Source of the DNA: Candidatus Marinacidobacterium sp.
GTDB lineage: Bacteria > Acidobacteriota > Vicinamibacteria > Marinacidobacterales > Marinacidobacteraceae
DNA: 64,000 nucleotides
Direction: 5' to 3'
Assembly: GCA_965220965.1 (NCBI GenBank)
Contig: OZ244852.1
Location: 576,001 to 640,000 of the forward strand
Shown here: positions 49,120 through 59,427 of the stretch, one piece after another
How positions within the stretch are numbered: position 1 is the first letter of the stretch
Layout of the letters: every line of letters begins with the position of its first letter
The notes under the pieces: generated by a model
Seen by the model: only the letters and a program-made list of their open reading frames with translations
What the model was told of the DNA's origin: nothing
Databases searched by the model: none
Program-made: the position numbers and the translations under genes

Positions 49120-49196
49120 TGGTGGACGGCACGGGGATCGAACCCGTGACCTCGGCATTGCGAACGCCGCGCTCTCCCTGGCTGAGCTAGCCGCCC
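49120..49196 (-). tRNA. tRNA-Ala(CGC)
   Basis: GGGCGGCTAGCTCAGCCAGGGAGAGCGCGGCGTTCGCAATGCCGAGGTCACGGGTTCGATCCCCGTGCCGTCCACCA: cloverleaf, anticodon CGC, G3:U70 pair, encoded CCA. Confidence 0.96.
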
Positions 49197-49213: not shown

Positions 49214-49222
49214 ATCTTAGCA
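49214..49222 (-). promoter_or_regulatory. Extended -10 TGCTAAGAT for tRNA-Ala, overlapping the aroC stop codon
   Basis: TG-n-TAnnnT 17 nt upstream of the tRNA 5' end. Confidence 0.55.
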
Positions 49223-50356
49223 ACCCGTTGATTTCGCTGCCGGTGCGTCCCGGCGAAGCCCGGAGCCGGTCCTGCTCTCTCGCAGCGCGGCCTGTCGCAG
49301 CGCATGGTCCGCGAGGACCAGGCACGCCATCGCTTCCACGATCGGGACCGCCCGCGGCAGCACGCACGGGTCGTGTCGACCGCGCCCGGCCAGGGTCACC
49401 GGCTTCCCGGCGGCGTCGACGGTGGACTGGGGCTTCGCGATCGTCGAGGTCGGCTTGAACGCCACCCGGAACACCACCGGCATTCCGGTGGAGATCCCCC
49501 CAAGCACCCCGCCGGCGTGGTTCGTCGTCGTCACGACGCGGCCCCCCTCGACGGCGAACTGGTCGTTGTGCTCGCTGCCGGTCATGCGCGTTCCGGAGAA
49601 GCCGCTGCCGACTTCGAATCCCTTCGAAGCGTTGATCGAGAGCATCGCCTTCGCCAGGTCCGCCTCCAGCTTGTCGAAGACCGGCTCTCCCAGTCCGGGC
49701 GGGACGCCGACCGCCCGGCACTCGATCACGCCGCCGACCGAGTCCCCCTCCTTGCGGACCCGCGTGATCAGCTCTTCCATCCGCGCCGCGGCGTCCGGGT
49801 CGGGGCAGCGCGTGGGGGTGGCGTCCACCGCCTCGCGGGTCACGACGTCCGGAATCGCCTCGGCCTCGATCTCGTGGACGCGCCGCACCCAGGCGACGCA
49901 GTCGGCGCCATACCGTTCGGCGAGGAAGGCGCGGGCCACCGCCCCGGCGGCGACGTGGGCGACGGTGACCCGGGCCGAGGAGCGGCCCCCGCCGCTCGGA
50001 TCCCGGCGGCCGTACTTGGCGTCGAGCGTGAAGTCGGCGTGGCCCGGGCGGAACGCGGTTCCGAAGGCCTGGTAGTCCGCCGGTCGGGCGTCCCGGTTCC
50101 GGACCGACATCGCGATCGGGTGCCCCGTCGTTCGTCCCTCGTGGAGCCCGGACTCGATCCGGACCCGGTCCTCTTCGCGCCGCGGCGAGGTGAGCGCGCT
50201 CTGACCCGGCCGCCGGCGGTCGAGGTCCCGCTGGACATCGTCGGCGCTGAGCGGCAGGCCGGGAGGGCACCCGTCCACCACGACTCCGATCCCGGGTCCG
50301 TGCGACTCGCCCCACGCGGTCACCCGGAAGAGCCGTCCGAAGGAGCTACCCGCCAT
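49217..50356 (-). CDS. aroC: Chorismate synthase
   Basis: [62 protein letters not shown]. Confidence 0.97.
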
Positions 50357-52550
50357 CCGGCGCCCCGATCCGCGTCGCTTCGGCGGTTTCGGCCGCCCGC
50401 CGCATCGTCTCCGCGGTGTTGCGCTCCCCGGTCCAGGCCTCGAACGCGGCCTCGGCCTGGAAGACCAGCATGGAGAGCCCGCCGACCGTCTTCTTCCCCA
50501 GTTCCTCCGCGCGCCGGAGGAGTCTGGTCCGCCGCGGCTGGTAGACGAGGTCGAAGATCAAGGCGTGCCCGGCGATGGCGGCGTCGGGCGCAGCCTGGGT
50601 CTCCGCGCCGCCAGCGGCGGCGCCGCGCATGCCGATCGGCGTGGCGTTCACCAGCAGGTCCCCGCCAAGACGCGCCCGGTCCGACCACGGCGCGTGCTCC
50701 ACCCCGAATTCGCTCGCCAGGCGCGAAGCCTTCCGGTCGCTCCGGGAGGTCACCACCGGCGCGGCCCCTTCGTCGAGGAGCGCGTAGAGGACGGCGCGCG
50801 CCGCTCCCCCGGCGCCGAAGACGCTCGCCCGGCGCTTGCGCAGCCGCCCGTGCGGGATCGCCTCCCGCAGGGCGCGGATCACCCCCAGCCAGTCCGTGTT
50901 GCGCCCTTCGAGAGCCCCGTCCACGGACACGATCGTATTCGCCGCTCCGATGCTCCGCGCGTCGTCGCGCAGGCGGTCGAGCAGCGGCGGGACGGCGGAC
51001 TTGTGGGGGATCGTGACATTCAGCCCGGCGGCGCCCATCAGCCGCGCCGCCATCAGGAAGGCCTCCAGTTCGGACGGCGGAACATCGAACGCCTGGTAGC
51101 AGGCTTCGATTCCGGTGCTCCGGAAAGCCGCCTCGTGCATCGGGGGGCTCAGGCTGTGTCCGACCGGATGGCCGATCACCCCGTGGACCGGGACGGGCGC
51201 CAGGAGCTTGCGGCCCCACCGGAGATGACGGCTTCGCACCTCCTCCGCATCCAGTTGGCCGGGGGCCACCGCGGCGCCTCCGGGGGGCGGCGCGAACGAG
51301 CCGAACGCGCTTCCGAGCGCGCCGCCCACCACGCGAAGCGCCTGACCGGCTTCCCCGAGCGCGACGCCCACGACGGGCGCGCGGCGGGAGGCCTGGCGCA
51401 CCCAGCGGGCGACCCTTCCGACCTCCGGCGCCGTTCGCGCGCGCATGGCGAGCTTCCGCACCGCCGGACCCGCGCCTCCGTCCATGGCGTCCATCGCTCC
51501 GGCGACCGCGTCCGGGTCCGCCGGGCAGCCGTCGATGTCGTGGAAGGATCCGAGAAGGCGGACGCCGGGCGCCGCCTCCCGAAGCAGCCGCGAGAGCGCC
51601 CCGCCGCGCTGGCGGTCGGCGGCGGCCTCGAGGTCCACCGTTCCCGCGCCGCAGCGGGCCGCGGTGAGGAGCAGTTGGGCGAGTTCCTCGCTGCCCCCCT
51701 GGAACGCTCCACCCTCCGCCGCGCTCCTCACGGTGACGATGAGCCGCGCGCGCCGCTCGCGCGGAAGCTCCCGGAGGACCGCCGCGAGGCGCTCCGGGCC
51801 CCCCGGGCGGAACAGATCCCAGCGCAGCTCGATCTGGTCGAGCGGTCCCGCTCCCCGGAACGCGGCCTCGATGGCGGCCCCGGGGCTTTCCTCCGGCCCG
51901 CCTCCGGCGATGACGGCGAGGCGCGGTCCGAAGTGAGCGGCCAGCAGCCGGTCGGCGGCCTCCCCCGGGCGGGTCTGGTCGAGGGCCTCGACGCTCCAGA
52001 GGTCGGCCTCGGCGGCCTCGCGGTAGCGCGGTGTGCGGCGCTCGAGCACGGCGGCGGCCTCGGCCTCCGGGTCCCCGGATCCCGGCAGCAGCGGAGGCCG
52101 GCGCGCGCGGTGTTTCGGCCGGGCGAGGCGCGCCTCCAGATACGCGAGGGGCGCCCGCACCCAGTAGACGGTCCCGAGCCCGCGCAGCAGCGGGAAGTTC
52201 GCCGCCCGCTCCACGATCCCTCCGCCGCAATCCACGACGAGGCCGGCGCCGCGGATCGACGCCAGCGCCGCGGTTTCCTCGTCCCGGAAGCGCTCCCAGC
52301 CGTGGCGCGCCACGAACTCGTGGATCGGGCCGAGCCGCGCCGTCAGCCCGTCGTCGGTGCTGATGCGCCGCCAGCCAATCCGGGCGGCGACGCGGCGCGC
52401 GGCCCGGCTCTTTCCCGAGGCCCGGGCGCCGATCAGCACGATGTTCGGGAAGCTCTCCGCCCGGAAGTCCCCGGTGGGGAAGTCCACCGACGGGAGATCC
52501 GGCGTCCGCGGCGGCTCGTTGCCGGCGCCGGGGCCGGGAGGGGTTGTCAC
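50346..52550 (-). CDS. Trifunctional fusion: shikimate kinase + type I 3-dehydroquinate dehydratase + shikimate dehydrogenase
   Basis: Kinase: [27 protein letters not shown]. Dehydratase: [27 protein letters not shown]. Dehydrogenase: [39 protein letters not shown]. One uninterrupted frame. Confidence 0.93.
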
Positions 52551-53875
52551 GCCTGGTCGTCCTCGTTCACCAGGGCGCCGAGGCCGGCGAGCGCCTTCCA
52601 GAAACCCGGGAAGGACTTCGCCACCACTTCCGGGGAGGAGACGCGCACTCCGCCCGGGATCCGCAGCCCGGTGAGAGCCAGCCCCATGGCGATGCGGTGA
52701 TCTCCCTCCGGGTCGACGGTGGCGGGCCGCAGCCTCGCGGGCCAGATCGTGAGGCTGTCGGCCGCGGTCTCGACCCGCGCGCCGAGGCGCCGGAGTCCGG
52801 CGGCGATCGCCTCGATCCGGTCGCTCTCCTTGTGCCGGAGATGCGCCACTCCGGTGATCCGCGTCGGCGCATCGGCGAACGGCGCCAGCGCGGCGAGCGT
52901 CGGGACCGCATCGGGCAGACGCCCCATGTCGACCTCGATCCCGGCGAGCCGCGGGGCGCCGGTGACCCGGAGCCGCCATCCGGACGACGTCGCGTCCTCC
53001 TCCACGTCGCAGCCCATCCGGCGGAGGAGGGCGGGGAACTCGCGCTCGCCCTGGGGAGAGTCGGGGTCGAGGCCGCGGATCTCGACCCGGCCCGGGGCGC
53101 CGTCAGGACCGCGCCCGAGGGCGGCCGCCGCCAGAAAGTAGCTGGCGGTCGTCCAGTCTCCTGAGACGCGGTGGATCCCGGGCCGGTAGCGCTCGGCCGC
53201 CGCCACCCGGAAACGGCGCGGCCCGTCCACTTCGACCCGGACACCGCAGCGCTCCATGACCCGGACCGTCAGGTCGAGGTAGGACCGGGACACCGGGTCC
53301 CCCGCCAGCTCCACTTCGACCGTCCCCGACGCCCGGGGCGCCGCGAGGAGGATGGCCGAGGCGAACTGGCTCGTCTGGTCCGCGGGGATGCGCGCCACTC
53401 CCCCGCGAAGCGTTCCGGAGCGCACTGTCAGCGGGGCGCCGCCGTCCCGCGTGCGGATCCGGGCGCCGAGGCTCTCGAGCGCCGCGACCAGACCGCGGAT
53501 CGGGCGCTCCCCGATGCGGCCCCGCCCGCGCAGCGTGACCGGCCGGGGAATCGTCGCGGAGGCGGCGGTCAGGAAGCGGAACAGCGTTCCCGACTCTCCC
53601 ACGGTGACGGCGATCTCTTCGAGCGGGGCGGAAGCGTCACCCGCCGAGGGCGCGCCGGTCACGACCAGCGCATCCCCGTCCTCCCGGATGTTCGCCCCGA
53701 TAGCGCCGATTGCGGCGGCGGCGATCCGGATGTCGTCCCCGTCGGGCAGCCCGAGAAGCCGGGTCTCGCCCTCGGTCAGCGCCGCAGCGATCAGCAGGCG
53801 ATTCGCTTCGTACTTGCTGCCCGGAACCCGGGCCGCCGCCCGAACCGGCGCCGGCCCGGGCGCCACCCGGGTCAC
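52547..53875 (-). CDS. aroA: 3-phosphoshikimate 1-carboxyvinyltransferase (EPSP synthase)
   Basis: PGSK..NR, SGTLFRFL, RP, TSQFASA, D.TTASYF, PDAVPTLA, LRHKESDRI, DHRIAM, KSFPGFW. Confidence 0.95.
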   Translation of the reverse strand: MTRVAPGPAPVRAAARVPGSKYEANRLLIAAALTEGETRLLGLPDGDDIRIAAAAIGAIGANIREDGDALVVTGAPSAGDASAPLEEIAVTVGESGTLFRFLTAASATIPRPVTLRGRGRIGERPIRGLVAALESLGARIRTRDGGAPLTVRSGTLRGGVARIPADQTSQFASAILLAAPRASGTVEVELAGDPVSRSYLDLTVRVMERCGVRVEVDGPRRFRVAAAERYRPGIHRVSGDWTTASYFLAAAALGRGPDGAPGRVEIRGLDPDSPQGEREFPALLRRMGCDVEEDATSSGWRLRVTGAPRLAGIEVDMGRLPDAVPTLAALAPFADAPTRITGVAHLRHKESDRIEAIAAGLRRLGARVETAADSLTIWPARLRPATVDPEGDHRIAMGLALTGLRIPGGVRVSSPEVVAKSFPGFWKALAGLGALVNEDDQA

Positions 53876-55008
53876 AGCCCGATCCGGCGCAGCCCGGCGT
53901 CGACCGCGTCCCCGGACACCGGGAACGCGTAGCGGCGGGCGCCATCGGCCTCTTCGCTGTGCGCCCGACCCACGGCGGCGAGCAGGACGAACCGGGCTCT
54001 TCCGCCGCGCGCCTTCTTGTCGCTGCGGATGCCGTCGAGCACCGCCTCGCGCGTCACCCCGGCCGGCGCGCGCGAGGGGAGCCCCACCGCTTCGAGGAGC
54101 GCGACGACCCTGGCCTCGTCCGCCTCGGACAGCAGACCCTCGGCGCGGGCGATACGGCTCTCGGCGACGATGCCGGTGGCGACCGCGGCGCCGTGCGGCA
54201 GCCGGTACCCGGAGGCGAGCTCGAGGCCGTGCCCCACGGTGTGGCCGAAGTTGAGGACCTCGCGGAGCCCGGCCTCCTGTTCGTCGGTGCGGACGACGCC
54301 CGTCTTGATCCGGACGCTGGCGGCGACGAGCCGGGTCAGCGCGCCCGTCTCGCGGCGGAGCAGCGGGTCCAGGTCGGCCTCGAACCGGGCGAATGCCCCG
54401 GCGTCGCTGGTGGCGGCCATCTTGAACGCCTCGGCGAGCCCGTTCCGGTACTCGGCGTCAGGAAGCGTTCCGAAGAACCCGGTGTCGGCGAAGACCGCCA
54501 CCGGCTGCCGGAACGCGCCGATCAGGTTCTTCCCCCAGGGGGTGTTCACGCCGGTCTTTCCGCCGACCGAAGCGTCCACCGCCGCCAGCAGCGTCGTGGG
54601 AACGGCCACGAAGGGCGCCCCCCGCAGGTAGGTCGCGGCCACGAACGCCGCCAGGTCGCTGACCACGCCCCCGCCGAAGCTCACGATGACGGTGTCGCGT
54701 CCCAGGTGGCGCGCGAGCAGTTCGTCCTCGATCCGTTCCTTCCGCCGCCGGGTCTTGTGCTCTTCTCCCGAGGGGACTTCCACCACGGTCGATCCGGACG
54801 GCAGGGCGGCCTCCAGCCGGTCGCGGTGGAGGGCGAGCGCTCCCGCGTCCGCGATCGCCGCGACCCGCCAGCCGGGGAACCGGTCCCGCAGCAGGTCGGG
54901 CAACCCGAGGATCGCGCCGGCGCCGGCGACCACCTCGCAGAAAGCGTCCCTCCGCGGGACGCGGACCTCGACGCGGGAGAGGCCGGAGGTCGCGCTTCCC
55001 CTGCTCAC
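53872..55008 (-). CDS. aroB: 3-dehydroquinate synthase
   Basis: GEEHKT, GGGVVSDLAAFVAATYLRG, VPTTLLAAVDASVGGKTGVN, GKNLIGAF, GLAE, LNFGHTVGH, HGAAVA, DKK. Confidence 0.96.
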   Translation of the reverse strand: MSRGSATSGLSRVEVRVPRRDAFCEVVAGAGAILGLPDLLRDRFPGWRVAAIADAGALALHRDRLEAALPSGSTVVEVPSGEEHKTRRRKERIEDELLARHLGRDTVIVSFGGGVVSDLAAFVAATYLRGAPFVAVPTTLLAAVDASVGGKTGVNTPWGKNLIGAFRQPVAVFADTGFFGTLPDAEYRNGLAEAFKMAATSDAGAFARFEADLDPLLRRETGALTRLVAASVRIKTGVVRTDEQEAGLREVLNFGHTVGHGLELASGYRLPHGAAVATGIVAESRIARAEGLLSEADEARVVALLEAVGLPSRAPAGVTREAVLDGIRSDKKARGGRARFVLLAAVGRAHSEEADGARRYAFPVSGDAVDAGLRRIGL

Positions 55009-56114
55009 CCGAGCGGCAGGCGCTCTCCCGCTCCGGTGTCGGGCGGGCCTCCCACCGGGAGCCCGGGAGCTGTCGGCAGGTTCCGCTTGAGCGCCTTCGC
55101 CACCGCCCGCAGGTCTCCCATCAGGTCCGCGAACTGGTCGGGGTAGAGCGACTGGGCGCCGTCGCTGAGCGCTTCCGCCGGGTTCGGGTGGACCTCGATG
55201 ATGAGTCCGTCGGCGCCGGCGGCGACCGCCGCCAGCGAGAGCGCCGGCACCAGGCTCTTGTTCCCGGCGGCGTGGCTCGGATCGGCGATCACCGGAAGGT
55301 GCGTCTCCTGCTTCAGCACTCCGATCGCGCCGACATCGAGCGTATTGCGGTACGCGGTCTCGAACGAGCGGATGCCCCGCTCGCACAGGATGACGCGCTC
55401 GTTCCCCTGCAGGATGTACTCGGCGGCGAGCAGGAACTCGCGGATCGTGTTCGCCGCCCCGCGCTTCAGGATGACGGGAACATCGACCAGCGCCATTTCC
55501 CGGAGCAGGTCGAAGTTCTGCATGTTGCGCGCGCCGATCCGGACGACGTCCACCAGCTCGGCGGCGATCTCGACGTCACGCACATCCATGACCTCGGTCT
55601 CGACGAGCACGCCGGTCGCCTCCCGGATCCGCTTCAGCATCCGGAGCCCGTCCCGCCCGAGACCCTGGAACGAATACGGCGACGTGCGCGGCTTGAACGC
55701 CGAAGCGCGCATGACCTCGAGGCCGAGCGAGCGAACCATCCGCGCCGACGCGAGCCCCTGCTCCTCGTTCTCGAGCGCGCAGGGTCCGGCGATGACCAGC
55801 AGGTCCCGCGATCCGAGGGTCTGGGTTCCGATTTCGATCCGGGTGTTCGAGCGATGGTGCGTCTTGTTCGCGAGCCGGTACGGCTTGGGCAGCCCGTAGA
55901 CCGCCTTCACGGCGGGCTGGGTCCGCCAGTCCGCCTCGATCTCCCCGGAGAGGTCTCCCAGCACGTGGATCTGGGTGCGCACCGCTGCGTGGTGCACCGC
56001 GTAGTCGAGGGCCTTCGCCTCGATCTGGCGGCCGAGGTGCTCGATGTCCTCGGCGGTGGCGCCCTGGTGCAGGATGAGCACCATGGTGGCGGGCTCGGTG
56101 GAACGTGGGCTCAT
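55005..56114 (-). CDS. aroF: DAHP synthase, type I-beta, with N-terminal regulatory (ACT/ferredoxin-like) domain
   Basis: IAGPC, FKPRTSPYSFQGLG, IGARNMQNF, ILKRG, LCERGIR, DPSH, IEVHP..ALSDG.QSL. Confidence 0.94.
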   Translation of the reverse strand: MSPRSTEPATMVLILHQGATAEDIEHLGRQIEAKALDYAVHHAAVRTQIHVLGDLSGEIEADWRTQPAVKAVYGLPKPYRLANKTHHRSNTRIEIGTQTLGSRDLLVIAGPCALENEEQGLASARMVRSLGLEVMRASAFKPRTSPYSFQGLGRDGLRMLKRIREATGVLVETEVMDVRDVEIAAELVDVVRIGARNMQNFDLLREMALVDVPVILKRGAANTIREFLLAAEYILQGNERVILCERGIRSFETAYRNTLDVGAIGVLKQETHLPVIADPSHAAGNKSLVPALSLAAVAAGADGLIIEVHPNPAEALSDGAQSLYPDQFADLMGDLRAVAKALKRNLPTAPGLPVGGPPDTGAGERLPLG

Positions 56115-56148: not shown

Positions 56149-56718
56149 TCAGGCGGTCAGGTCGAGGAAGTTCTCCATCAGCCGACGGCCGGCGGGCGTC
56201 AGGATGGACTCGGGGTGGAACTGTACGCCCCACATCGGGGCCGCGCGATGGCGAACCGCCATGACCTCGTCGTCGTCTTCGGCTCGGGCGGTGACTTCGA
56301 ACTCCGGCGGGAGGGGTTCGTTCGCCGCGAGCGAGTGATAGCGCGCCGCGGGAAACGGGTTTTCCACCCCGGCGAAGAGCCCCTTCGCGTCGTGGCGCAC
56401 CAGCGACGTCTTCCCGTGGACGAGGCGCCGGGCCCGTCCGATCGTTCCGGCGAACGCCTGGACGAGCGACTGGTGGCCGAGGCAGACCCCGAGGACGGGA
56501 ACTTCGCCAGCGAATCGGCGCGCGAGTTCCACCGAGATGCCCGCCTTGTCCGGGGTGCAGGGGCCGGGCGAGATCACGACGCGCGCGGGCCGGAGGGCGG
56601 CGGCCTCCTCCACGGTGAGCCGGTCGTTCCGCACGACTTCCGGCTCGGCGCCCAGTTCTCCGAGGAGCTGCACGAGATTCCAGGTGAACGAGTCGTAGTT
56701 GTCGAGGACGAGGGTCAC
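56149..56718 (-). CDS. trpG: Anthranilate/aminodeoxychorismate synthase component II (glutamine amidotransferase)
   Basis: LDNYDSFTWNL, ISPGP, GVCLGHQ, HGKTS, RYHSL, GVQFHPES. Confidence 0.92.
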   Translation of the reverse strand: MTLVLDNYDSFTWNLVQLLGELGAEPEVVRNDRLTVEEAAALRPARVVISPGPCTPDKAGISVELARRFAGEVPVLGVCLGHQSLVQAFAGTIGRARRLVHGKTSLVRHDAKGLFAGVENPFPAARYHSLAANEPLPPEFEVTARAEDDDEVMAVRHRAAPMWGVQFHPESILTPAGRRLMENFLDLTA

Positions 56719-56730
56719 GACGGTTCCGGC

Positions 56731-58236
56731 TCAGGTGAGTCCCTCGTGGGCCATGCGCAGCGCGGTGAGCACCGCGTCGGCCTTCTGGCGGGTCTCTTCG
56801 AATTCGGCTTCCGGGTCCGAGTCGGCGACGACCCCGCCCCCGGCCTGGAAGTAGGCCATCCCGCCGGTGGCGACCAGCGTCCGGATGGCGATCGCGGTGT
56901 CCGAGGCGCCGCTCCATGAGAAGTAGCCGACCGCGCCTCCGTACACCCCGCGCCGCTCCGTCTCGAGCTCGTCAATGATCTCCATCGCGCGGATCTTGGG
57001 CGCCCCGGTGAGCGTCCCGGCAGGGAACGTAGCGCGCAGCGCGTCGAAGGCGTCGAGCCCCGGACGCAGCCGCCCCCGCACCCGGGATACGAGATGCATG
57101 ACGTGGGAGTAGCGCTCGATCTCGGAGAACGCCTCGACTCTCACATCCCCGAAGCCGGCGATGCGGCCGATGTCGTTGCGGGCGAGGTCCACCAGCATCA
57201 CGTGCTCGGCGCGTTCCTTCTCGTCGGCCAGCAGGTCGCGCTCGAGCGCCTCGTCCCGGACCGGGTCGTCGTGGCGGGGCCGGGTCCCGGCGATCGGGCG
57301 GGTCTCGACGACCCCGTCCTGGGTCCGGGTCATCATCTCCGGTGAAGCGCCCGCGACGACCAGGTCCCCGAAGTCCAGGTAGTACATGTAGGGGGAGGGG
57401 TTGACGACCCGCAGCGCCCGGTAGAAGTCGAAGGGCTCGACGGTGAGCGGCGTCCGGAAGCGCCGCGAGGGGACGACCTGGATGATGTCGCCGGCGGCGA
57501 CGTAGTCCTTGGCCCGGCGCACGCGGTCGAGGTACGCCTCGCGGCTCAGGTCCGATGTGGGCTCAGGGAATGGCGGTATCCGCCGCGGGACCGCGCGCGC
57601 GGTCTCCGGGAGCGCGGCCCAGAGTCTCCTCACTTCGGCCTCGAGCTCGGCCGCCGCGCGGTCGTAGGCAACGTCGGGGTCCTCGCCGGGCCGAAGGATG
57701 GTGTTCGACACGACCTGGATGACGCTGCGGGCGTGATCGAAGACGACGACCGCCCCGCTGAGGAGGAACGCGGCGTCCGGCAGCCCGAGCGAATCCTCCA
57801 CCGTGTCCGGGAGCCTCTCGAAGCGCCGGACGGCGTCGTAGCCGAGGTATCCGACGAGTCCCCCGTGAAACGGCGGGAGCCCCTCCGGCTCGGCGGGGCG
57901 CGATTCCGCCAGCACCTCCCGGAGGGCGTCCAACGGGTCGCGGCTGGTTGTCGTCCGGACCTGGCCGTCGGGGAGAGCGCGCCGGGTGATCTGCTCCCCG
58001 CGCACTTCGACGATCTCCCGGGGACGGGACCCGAGGAAGGAGTAGCGGGCCACCGTCTCCCCGCCCTCGACCGACTCCATGAGGAACGAGGGGCCGCCAT
58101 CGGCCAGCCGCAGGAAGCTGGACACCGGGGTGTCGCAGTCCGCGACGATGCGTCGCCACACCGGGATCAGGTTCCCCTGCTTCGCGAGCCGCCGGAAATC
58201 GGCCCTCGAAGGCGTCAGATCCCCGGTGCGCCGCAT
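56731..58236 (-). CDS. trpE: Anthranilate synthase component I
   Basis: DTP, FLMESVEGG...RYSF, GDIIQVV.S, NPSPYMYY, SPE, RPIAGTR, KERAEHVMLVDLARND, YSHVMH, PAGTLTGAPK, QAGGGVVADS. Confidence 0.92.
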   Translation of the reverse strand: MRRTGDLTPSRADFRRLAKQGNLIPVWRRIVADCDTPVSSFLRLADGGPSFLMESVEGGETVARYSFLGSRPREIVEVRGEQITRRALPDGQVRTTTSRDPLDALREVLAESRPAEPEGLPPFHGGLVGYLGYDAVRRFERLPDTVEDSLGLPDAAFLLSGAVVVFDHARSVIQVVSNTILRPGEDPDVAYDRAAAELEAEVRRLWAALPETARAVPRRIPPFPEPTSDLSREAYLDRVRRAKDYVAAGDIIQVVPSRRFRTPLTVEPFDFYRALRVVNPSPYMYYLDFGDLVVAGASPEMMTRTQDGVVETRPIAGTRPRHDDPVRDEALERDLLADEKERAEHVMLVDLARNDIGRIAGFGDVRVEAFSEIERYSHVMHLVSRVRGRLRPGLDAFDALRATFPAGTLTGAPKIRAMEIIDELETERRGVYGGAVGYFSWSGASDTAIAIRTLVATGGMAYFQAGGGVVADSDPEAEFEETRQKADAVLTALRMAHEGLT

Positions 58237-58305: not shown

Positions 58306-59427
58306 ATGTCGCTGGAGGCGCTCCGGGACCGCGTCGCCCAGGCGGACCGGGACCTTCTCGACGCGTGGGCGCGTCGGGAGGAGGCGGTCCGGGCGCTCGG
58401 GCGGCTGAAGGCGGAACGCGGCCTTCCCATCCACGACCCGCAGCAGGAGGGACCGGTCTTCGAGCGGGCCCGCGTGCGCGCCGAGCGCCGGGGGCTTCCC
58501 CCGGACGCCGTGGAAGAGGTCATCGGGGTCATCATGCGGACCTCGTTGGCCCGCCAGGAGACGATCCGCGTGCGGTCGCGCCGGTCGGGCGCGGGCCGGA
58601 AGGCGCTGGTGATCGGCGGTGGGGGCCGGATGGGGCGGTGGTTTTGTCGTTTCCTTGCGGATCAGGCGTATTCGGTCACGGTCGCGGACCCGGGGGGCGC
58701 TCCTCCCGACACCCCGCAACTCCGCGACTGGCGGGATGCGCGCGGCGAATCCTGGGACGTCACGGTCGTGGCCGCGCCGATCCTGGTGTCCGCGGACATT
58801 CTCGCGGCGATGGCCGAGACTGGATGGCCGGGACTGGTGTTCGACATCGGGTCGGTCAAGGCTCCCCTCGCGCCGGCGCTGGGACGGCTCGCGAGCCGGG
58901 GAGTCCGGACCGCTTCGGTCCACCCGATGTTCGGACCGCACGCCATCCTTCTCCACGGGCGGCACATCCTCGTCATGGATGCGGGCAGCCCGGAGGCCGC
59001 CGATGAGGCGGAGGCCCTCTTCGGCGAAACGATGGCGGAGATCCTCCGGCTCCCGCTCGAACAGCACGATCCGCTCATCGCGTATGTCCTGGGCCTCTCC
59101 CACGCCCTGAACCTCGCCTTCCTCGAGGCGCTTCGCAACAGCGGCGAGCAGGCGCCGCAGCTCGCCCGGATCTCGAGCGTCACGTTCGACCGCCAGTTGC
59201 GGGTGTCCGCGGCCGTGGCCGCGGAGAATCCGCATCTCTATTACGAGATCCAGCGGCTCAACCCGGATGGCCAGCGGGCGCTCGCCGGCCTCGCCGAGGC
59301 GGTATCCCGTATCCGGGCCGCCGTCGGCGACGCCCGCGAGGGGGCGTTCGTTGGCCTGATGGAGAGCGGACGCGAGTGGGTGAGCTCCCGCCGCGCGCCG
59401 GGGTCCCGTCGCGTCGCCGAGTCCTGA
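58306..59427 (+). CDS. tyrA: Bifunctional chorismate mutase (AroQ) / prephenate dehydrogenase
   Basis: N-terminal LEALR...R...LK...PIHDP..E...S...QE; IGGGGRMG, DIGSVK, HPMFGP, HD..IAYVLGLSH, NPHLYYEIQ. Confidence 0.9.
   Translation: MSLEALRDRVAQADRDLLDAWARREEAVRALGRLKAERGLPIHDPQQEGPVFERARVRAERRGLPPDAVEEVIGVIMRTSLARQETIRVRSRRSGAGRKALVIGGGGRMGRWFCRFLADQAYSVTVADPGGAPPDTPQLRDWRDARGESWDVTVVAAPILVSADILAAMAETGWPGLVFDIGSVKAPLAPALGRLASRGVRTASVHPMFGPHAILLHGRHILVMDAGSPEAADEAEALFGETMAEILRLPLEQHDPLIAYVLGLSHALNLAFLEALRNSGEQAPQLARISSVTFDRQLRVSAAVAAENPHLYYEIQRLNPDGQRALAGLAEAVSRIRAAVGDAREGAFVGLMESGREWVSSRRAPGSRRVAES

Follow-up and report, generated by a model that had tools for sequence, protein, structure and literature searches.

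The DNA analysed here is a 64,000-nucleotide (nt) stretch, called the window, of contig OZ244852.1 (positions 576,001 to 640,000; assembly GCA_965220965.1) from Candidatus Marinacidobacterium sp., and its minus strand carries a seven-step chorismate operon with the gene order trpE-trpG-DAHPS-aroB-aroA-aroKDE-aroC-tRNA-Ala, without gaps. DAHPS stands for DAHP synthase, and K-D-E denotes a fusion of aroK, aroD and aroE, the genes of shikimate kinase, dehydroquinase and shikimate dehydrogenase. An earlier note on this DNA had described aroB, aroA and a K-D-E gene for a 734-amino-acid (aa) protein as three consecutive minus-strand genes; the open reading frames and the Pfam and TIGR models (Table 1) bear this out, and the three genes are the middle part of the larger operon. 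We consider it likely that the locus is the housekeeping chorismate operon of a single Acidobacteriota family, the Marinacidobacteraceae (below, the window family), and that it belongs to a laterally spread operon type, DAHPS-B-A-K-D-E-C. Its match in order to the pentafunctional AROM protein of eukaryotes would then reflect membership in this operon type and not direct AROM ancestry.

Operon order in archaea and other bacteria

A scan of 1.84 billion representatives returned collinear K-D-E proteins at 30-34% identity, two of which are named Woesearchaeota, and two A-K-D-E proteins of 1071 and 1086 aa. Other domain orders found were D-E-K, K-A-D-E, D-E-A-K, A-K-E, E-K and K-E. With a 4-sequence alignment as the query, 30 full- or part-length matches in species-representative genomes were collected (loci L111-L140). 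The hosts are Woesearchaeota, Nanoarchaeota/Nanoarchaeia, Neomarinimicrobiota, metagenome-assembled genomes (MAGs) labelled 'uncultured Methanosarcinales' or 'archaeon', and other bacteria. The order A-K-D-E was present in 27 of the 30 loci, with aroB and DAHPS upstream and aroC downstream wherever the contig extends; L134 has the order D-E-A-K-C, and L132 and L133 are fragments. In L118, L121 and L138, trpE/trpG are also placed as in the window. Judged by gene order and by the flanking DAHPS and aroC genes, the window belongs to the DAHPS-B-A-K-D-E-C type, and so do all nine window-family loci that were examined. The AROM-like order B-A-K-D-E, to which the earlier note had drawn attention, is real; it is conserved in 9/9 family loci and, as A-K-D-E, in most of the loci elsewhere.

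To describe the fusion states, we separate individual proteins by a bar (A|K|DE) and write a single chain without one (AKDE). Among L111-L140, eight loci are AKDE (one cut by a contig end), three are AK|DE, six are A|KDE, which is the state of the window, and ten are A|K|DE (two cut). This operon type recurs among prokaryotes; the window arrangement is one example of it, and not the most AROM-like example. Four-enzyme EPSPS-SK-DHQD-SD proteins (EPSP synthase, shikimate kinase, dehydroquinase and shikimate dehydrogenase) of about 1070-1120 aa were observed between aroB and aroC in Nanoarchaeota/Woesearchaeota-type MAGs (L112:1588-4890, L114, L118, L121 and L122), and closely related loci display all of the intermediate fusion states. 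The archaeal and Marinimicrobia K-D-E and A-K-D-E entries in the databases are annotated merely as 'shikimate dehydrogenase'. A literature search, which covered few subscription journals, found no paper on a prokaryotic K-D-E or A-K-D-E fusion or on an operon with the AROM order.

Distribution within the Acidobacteriota

The K-D-E fusion is a derived trait at the level of the family. Among 5.8 billion proteins searched, full-length K-D-E proteins made up 58 further clusters (48-65% identity), whose few named members are called 'Acidobacteria bacterium'. In a sample of the phylum (401 genomes), any match was obtained in 334, and a match extending from the N-terminus onward was obtained in the window's own genome only; the best matches in the rest of the sample cover approximately residues 220-720, that is, a D-E fusion. 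In a sample of the order (55 genomes), the full-length fusion was found in 26 of the 27 other window-family genomes, each time as one open frame, and the single family genome without a match is 66% complete. Because the frame is open in these 26 genomes, the fusion in the window is not an assembly artefact, the objection that stop codons inside the fusion gene would have raised against the earlier note.

The two sister families have D-E only, in 7/8 and 19/19 genomes. Each window-family genome has exactly one shikimate kinase match, the fused one, whereas between one and five matches to a stand-alone aroK were obtained in the sister families. In 18 of 25 sister-family loci (L081-L105) aroA adjoins a stand-alone aroK, so that A-K adjacency also exists in the scattered arrangement, there with a different EPSPS class. 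In 11 loci from the sister families and the class, the D-E gene stands alone or adjoins trpE-trpG. The window-family order trpE-trpG-DAHPS-aroB-aroA-KDE-aroC was kept in all nine loci examined, and a tRNA-Ala(CGC) gene lies directly 3' of aroC in the same nine; the operon was probably acquired, and the tRNA gene bordering it may show where it once integrated. The tallies for the phylum, the order and the kinase include the unpublished genomes G152, G049, G024, G403 and G495, and one G403 row (L081) was included in both kinase trees and in the first AroA tree; no conclusion depends on them. A published survey reports the D-E fusion in 88 Acidobacteria and 198 Planctomycetes assemblies, in a passage that makes no mention of a K-D-E form (PMC11237513).

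Two further observations were made on relatives of the fusion. In one sister family, the D-E fusion is extended at its C-terminus by a ThiF-family (PF00899) domain, the open frames being about 830-990 aa long (L070:8470-11448 on the plus strand, P0183, P0080 and P0082); we know of no description of such a D-E-ThiF fusion. A 197-aa 'shikimate kinase [Geodia barretti]' (P0260), attributed to a sponge, shares 65% identity with the kinase domain. The 351-kb contig that encodes it probably comes from a window-family symbiont whose DNA was included in the sponge assembly, and annotation would have split the fusion gene there.

Phylogenetic origin of the operon genes

The AroA and kinase trees connect the window family with the operons of archaea and Marinimicrobia. 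Bit scores to the window AroA were 363-599 within the same family, 188-332 for the archaeal/Marinimicrobia operons and 74-156 for the sister families. The window family was sister to the main archaeal/Marinimicrobia operon group both in a quick AroA tree (106 rows, support 99) and in a careful one (57 rows, 89/99), and in the careful tree the other Acidobacteriota fell into a separate 100/100 cluster together with most rows of the Bacillota and Rhodospirillales-MAG samples. In the kinase trees, the window family grouped with operon-type kinases, with support of 95 under LG+G4 and 88 under the posterior mean site frequency (PMSF) model, and apart from the stand-alone AroK proteins of the sister families, which formed clades of 99-100. 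The kinase of the window family thus probably shares descent with the operon-type kinases. In the careful AroB tree, the window family, the operon group and AROM shared a clade (100/99) from which the other Acidobacteriota were excluded, and a 97-row AroB tree recovered the same cluster (support 96). With respect to shared descent with the operon type, then, AroA and the kinase group with it, the AroB clade also holds AROM and Caldithrix, and D-E does not group.

The operons of Woesearchaeota/Nanoarchaeota and Neomarinimicrobiota are close counterparts of the window locus: they have its gene order including DAHPS and aroC, its fusion state in six loci, a sister AroA and a kinase of the same group. 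They differ from it in their K-D-E proteins, which are only 28-33% identical to that of the window and whose D-E parts do not group with it, and in their hosts, which are small-genome archaea and Marinimicrobia, not Acidobacteriota. From these trees we infer that the operon was acquired or assembled in the ancestor of the window family, largely from outside and possibly around a native D-E gene.

Several observations weigh against this origin, or against reading the locus as an operon. The D-E tree calculated with the site-heterogeneous PMSF model places the window family with 15 other Acidobacteriota, although weakly (86), and not with the operon group. A quick D-E tree (LG+G4) had put it with other D-E proteins; we do not rely on that tree because the site-heterogeneous model moved the family to the Acidobacteriota. 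The operon may be a mosaic, or the D-E tree may lack resolution. All trees give the window family a long stem (0.46 to 1.14), so that fast divergence after a rearrangement could mimic transfer, and the outgroup sampling is thin, consisting of four other phylum samples and a few single genomes. The G+C content of the operon (0.75-0.76, versus 0.69-0.74 in the remaining window) gives no compositional sign of recent transfer. In addition, a promoter scan found no promoter-like site, and a terminator scan found two terminator-like sites, both on the plus strand, where 2.6 were expected from shuffled sequences.

The site-heterogeneous D-E tree speaks for independent origins of the order B-A-K-D-E in the window family, in the archaeal/Marinimicrobia group and in AROM, as it separates the three. 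The variety of other domain orders listed above, with D-E-A-K-C in L134, likewise suggests that shikimate genes shuffle and fuse freely. We nevertheless judge pure convergence unlikely: the window AroA and kinase pair specifically with the other operon group (99 and 89/99 for AroA, 88 to 95 for the kinase), and the flanking DAHPS and aroC genes, even trpE/trpG in three of the loci, are placed alike. For these reasons, it is likelier that prokaryotes share at least part of the arrangement by descent.

Relation to AROM

The domain order of AROM is given as N-DHQS-EPSPS-SK-DHQD-SD-C, where DHQS is 3-dehydroquinate synthase, in a published description (PMC6851490), and the window genes aroB, aroA and K-D-E follow the same order. 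Six long matches of AROM architecture to the fusion were 28-32% identical, and four of them cover 92-94% of its length. AROM or Aro1 of fungi and protists (PDB 6hqv, 7u5s and 7tbv) resembles the window operon in having the five activities in the same order and a part collinear with K-D-E. It differs in being one polypeptide, whereas the window encodes three, and the window genes are prokaryotic and embedded between DAHPS and aroC.

The earlier note had suggested that the locus may be a relative of the operon that gave rise to AROM, and per-domain phylogenies had been proposed as one way to check it. These trees support the idea for one domain only. In the careful AroB tree, the 100/99 clade comprises AROM, the window family, the operon group, Caldithrix and one further bacterium, and it excludes 34 other sampled AroB proteins: 7 from the Actinomycetota sample, 8 from the sample of the Rhodospirillales-MAG phylum, 7 from the Bacillota sample, 5 from the fourth phylum sample, 5 from other Acidobacteriota and 2 from Nitrospinota/Nitrospirota. 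In the careful AroA tree, AROM (100/99) together with P0215 (91/44) formed a separate branch of a polytomy; in the PMSF kinase tree, AROM lay across a split of 92 from the window family; and in the site-heterogeneous D-E tree, AROM with P0215 stood apart from the window family. Three of the four domain trees (EPSPS, kinase and D-E) thus do not show the link between AROM and the operons that the DHQS tree suggests, and in all trees the window domains lie outside the AROM clade, which has support of 99-100. A concatenated tree (30 rows, 1428 columns) left AROM, the window family, the operon group and Caldithrix as a polytomy; five other Acidobacteriota (100) and one Eubacteriales genome (97) were split off from it.

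Approximately unbiased (AU) tests under LG+G4 did not reject trees in which AROM was held together with the window family for D-E (p 0.736), with the family and the operon group for AroA (p 0.768), or with the family and the operon-type kinases for the kinase (p 0.694). The likelihood of each constrained tree exceeded that of the free tree, which came from a short search, and a control grouping of AROM with the stand-alone AroK proteins of the sister families passed equally (p 0.674). Since the control passed as well, the tests have no power here and were given no weight.

Taken in its wide form, the suggestion is that eukaryotic AROM descends from a prokaryotic DAHPS-B-A-K-D-E-C operon that an early eukaryote acquired and whose genes were then fused step by step. 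The non-pathway order of AROM would then have been inherited from a laterally mobile prokaryotic operon and not invented in eukaryotes, and the eukaryote would have completed the path of fusion. The identity of the two orders (that of AROM as given in PMC6851490) speaks for this, and so do the recurrence of the order in three or more groups of prokaryotes, four-domain fusions included, and the prokaryotic series from A|K|DE to AKDE, which illustrates how stepwise fusion could proceed. The AROM DHQS domain shares its clade with the AroB proteins of the operons (100/99, and 96 in the 97-row tree), and AROM falls into a cluster of 97 with the window family and the operon group in the concatenated tree. 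Still, one of four domain trees carries the link: for EPSPS, the window family and the operon group pair without AROM, and in the kinase and D-E trees AROM stands apart. Moreover, Caldithrix and the one further bacterium are inside the AroB clade without having the full order, the AROM stems are long (0.44 to 0.89) and invite long-branch artefacts, and only a few phyla, none of them Asgard archaea, were sampled. We regard this descent as rather unlikely on the present trees, and the locus as a credible lead to AROM's ancestor that these phylogenies do not establish.

A narrower version, in which the window family would, among living lineages, stand closest to the operon from which AROM arose, appears very unlikely. 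It draws on the careful AroB tree, where AROM and the window family are sisters at 90/70, and on the identity between the 734-aa protein and AROM, which in four of the six long matches extends over nearly the whole chain. Support of 90/70 is weak, however, and joins the two longest stems of the clade. The window EPSPS and kinase pair with the archaeal/Marinimicrobia operons and not with AROM, and among solved structures AROM (6hqv, 160 bits) matches the fusion no better than the archaeal stand-alone shikimate dehydrogenase 1nvt (177 bits) or the plant DHQ-SDH 2gpt (169 bits). Furthermore, the fusion is confined to one family of a phylum in which D-E alone is the rule; because K-D-E is derived at the family level, the window family is a late member of the operon type and not a surviving ancestor.

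Transfer in the opposite direction, by which the prokaryotic K-D-E and A-K-D-E proteins would be pieces of a eukaryotic AROM gene, could account for the collinear domain order and for about 30% identity along the whole length. We find it extremely improbable, given that AROM forms a single clade on its own stem (99-100) in every tree and that no prokaryotic group is nested inside it; the only rows within that clade are eukaryotic proteins with the domain order K-E-E. The latter (P0123, P0133 and P0160) are about 920 aa long and fall within the AROM clade of the kinase trees; P0123 comes from a dinoflagellate and one member of the P0133 cluster from a labyrinthulid. They resemble AROM fragments that have been remodelled and whose dehydrogenase has been duplicated. 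Another protein found near AROM is P0215, a four-domain D-E-A-K protein of 1167 aa encoded on a 68-kb contig. It grouped with AROM in the D-E trees (96 and 91) and in the first (93) and careful (91/44) AroA trees, was placed beside AROM in a polytomy in the 106-row AroA tree, and did not group with AROM in either kinase tree by its kinase domain.

The K-D-E fusion protein

The Pfam domains of the fusion protein span residues 43-181 (SKI), 228-440 (DHquinase_I) and 458-720 (Shikimate_dh_N and SDH_C). In the window genome (3.25 Mb, 2 contigs, 94% complete), the K-D-E gene is single-copy, the sole shikimate kinase (SKI) match falls within it, and no type II dehydroquinase (PF01220) was found.

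The kinase domain scored 78 bits with PF01202 (cut-off 22.1), and no NCBIfam kinase model reached its cut-off on the fusion, the best being AroL (90.9 versus 161). The dehydroquinase domain scored 101.7 bits with PF01487 (cut-off 22.2) and 69.1 bits with TIGR01093 (aroD), which is below the cut-off of 139.3, indicating that this domain is divergent, though accepted by Pfam. The shikimate dehydrogenase domain exceeded the cut-off of TIGR00507 (216.1 versus 200.2 bits).

In an alignment of 39 K-D-E proteins, the invariant residues include G46, K47, D66 and G109-G111 of the kinase, which we take to be the Walker A loop (G46/K47), the shikimate-binding aspartate and the GGG motif. Likewise invariant are E241, R243, D245, H337 and K366 of the dehydroquinase, and K517, N538, D553 and the glycine-rich-motif residues G579, G581 and G582 of the dehydrogenase. 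H337 and K366, presumably the catalytic histidine and the Schiff-base lysine of a type I dehydroquinase, are also invariant in a separate alignment of 16 proteins, and we assume that the invariant residues of all three domains have their usual catalytic roles. The motifs that the earlier note had called AROM-like are present, GARASGKS as the Walker A of the kinase domain and GT..RFLT in the aroA product. The Walker A form is not specific to AROM, because GxRGxGKS/T occurs in unrelated D-E-K fusions.

An AlphaFold2 monomer model of K-D-E, based on the 39-protein alignment, was confident, with a predicted local distance difference test score (pLDDT) of 90.8 and a predicted template-modelling score (pTM) of 0.91. 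The top Foldseek match to this model was AROM 6hqv, with all three domains aligned at a template-modelling (TM) score of 0.33 and a root-mean-square deviation of 22 Å. AROM forms a compact homodimer built around central DHQS and DHQD dimers; the superposition of the K-D-E monomer on it yielded domain-level matches only, and the predicted domain arrangement is not that of AROM.

The plant DHQ-SDH (PDB 2gpt/2o7q) and bacterial AroDE proteins have two domains in the order of the D-E part of the window fusion, which adds an N-terminal kinase to them. On the K-D-E model, the plant structures matched moderately (TM 0.39-0.40 by query, 0.54-0.55 by target). The D-E-K fusions of Pirellulales/Planctomycetota have the same three activities on one chain as the window fusion, but their kinase is C-terminal, which is not the AROM order, and their kinase domains are mostly elsewhere in the tree.

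Layout of the operon and its surroundings

The genes, the domains of the fusion protein and the neighbouring features are listed in Table 1.

Table 1. Features of the chorismate operon and its neighbours (window coordinates; bit scores with model cut-offs)
Feature	Positions	Strand	Support or remark
trpE, anthranilate synthase component I, first gene of the cluster	56731..58236	-	Pfam Chorismate_bind and Anth_synt_I_N; position kept in 9/9 family loci
trpG, anthranilate synthase glutamine amidotransferase	56149..56718	-	Pfam GATase; position kept in 9/9 family loci
DAHP synthase, type I-beta, with N-terminal ferredoxin-like regulatory domain, step 1	55005..56114	-	PF00793 and PF18152; NF006421 423 bits (cut-off 335)
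aroB, 3-dehydroquinate synthase, step 2, 378 aa	53872..55008	-	PF01761 and PF24621 (DHQ_synthase N and C); TIGR01357 328 bits (cut-off 305)
aroA, EPSP synthase, step 6, 442 aa	52547..53875	-	PF00275 (EPSP_synthase); TIGR01356 369 bits (cut-off 287)
aroK-aroD-aroE fusion, 734 aa, steps 5, 3 and 4	50346..52550	-	Pfam SKI, DHquinase_I, Shikimate_dh_N and SDH_C in order
Shikimate kinase domain, residues 32-207	51930..52457	-	Domain hidden Markov model (HMM) envelope; sole SKI match in genome
Type I dehydroquinase domain, residues 210-445	51216..51923	-	Domain HMM envelope
Shikimate dehydrogenase domain, residues 454-726	50373..51191	-	Domain HMM envelope
aroC, chorismate synthase, step 7	49217..50356	-	PF01264 457 bits
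tRNA-Ala(CGC), immediately 3' of aroC, last feature of the cluster	49120..49196	-	ARAGORN and Rfam
Chorismate mutase/prephenate dehydrogenase, divergently transcribed neighbour	58306..59427	+	PF01817, PF02153 and PF20463

The junctions were read directly from the sequence. The four-base overlaps GTGA that the earlier note had reported between aroB and aroA (53872-53875) and between aroA and the fusion gene (52547-52550) are there, and a third one joins the DAHPS stop to the aroB start (55005-55008). The fusion gene and aroC overlap by 11 nt (50346-50356), the ATG of aroC lying within the 3' end of the fusion gene. Through stop codons at 53872-53874 and 52547-52549, aroB, aroA and the fusion gene remain three separate frames; in the nine family loci, the three genes lie in different reading frames in seven and in separate stop-to-stop frames in all nine. 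A four-base start/stop overlap is the commonest overlap type in prokaryotic operons and the usual form of translational coupling, and the GTGA overlaps here are ordinary coupling without special meaning.

The PF18152 ferredoxin-like domain mediates feedback inhibition in DAHP synthases of the Thermotoga type, and the DAHP synthase carrying it is likely to be a control point of flux through the operon. Upstream of trpE, on the opposite strand, the chorismate mutase/prephenate dehydrogenase gene is a less constant neighbour: tblastn gave a full-length match in three of the nine family loci (L062, L063 and L065), a partial one in L064 (residues 237-373), and none above 60 bits in L061 and L066-L069.

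Proposed function and significance

In the explanation that we prefer, the genes would be transcribed together, and the start/stop overlaps would couple their translation, so that the enzymes are made together. Placing steps 3, 4 and 5 on one 734-aa chain, in the order K-D-E, would fix their ratio at 1:1:1 and keep the activities close to each other, and this chain would be the only detected source of shikimate kinase in the cell. The locus would be a member of a laterally spread type, also present in DPANN archaea and Marinimicrobia, in which neighbouring genes have been fused repeatedly. In the window family, it would have replaced the scattered set seen in its relatives, namely a D-E fusion, a stand-alone aroK beside an aroA of a different class, and a different aroB, with the D-E part possibly being native.

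The order of AROM is a recurring order of prokaryotic operons, and three- and four-enzyme fusions already exist in bacteria and archaea. The origin of AROM and of its non-pathway domain order is the question that these operons make testable by dense phylogenies. With three steps on one compact natural chain, the bacterial K-D-E protein could serve studies of fusion and channelling and the engineering of the shikimate pathway. For the Marinacidobacteraceae, the locus by itself is ordinary primary metabolism.

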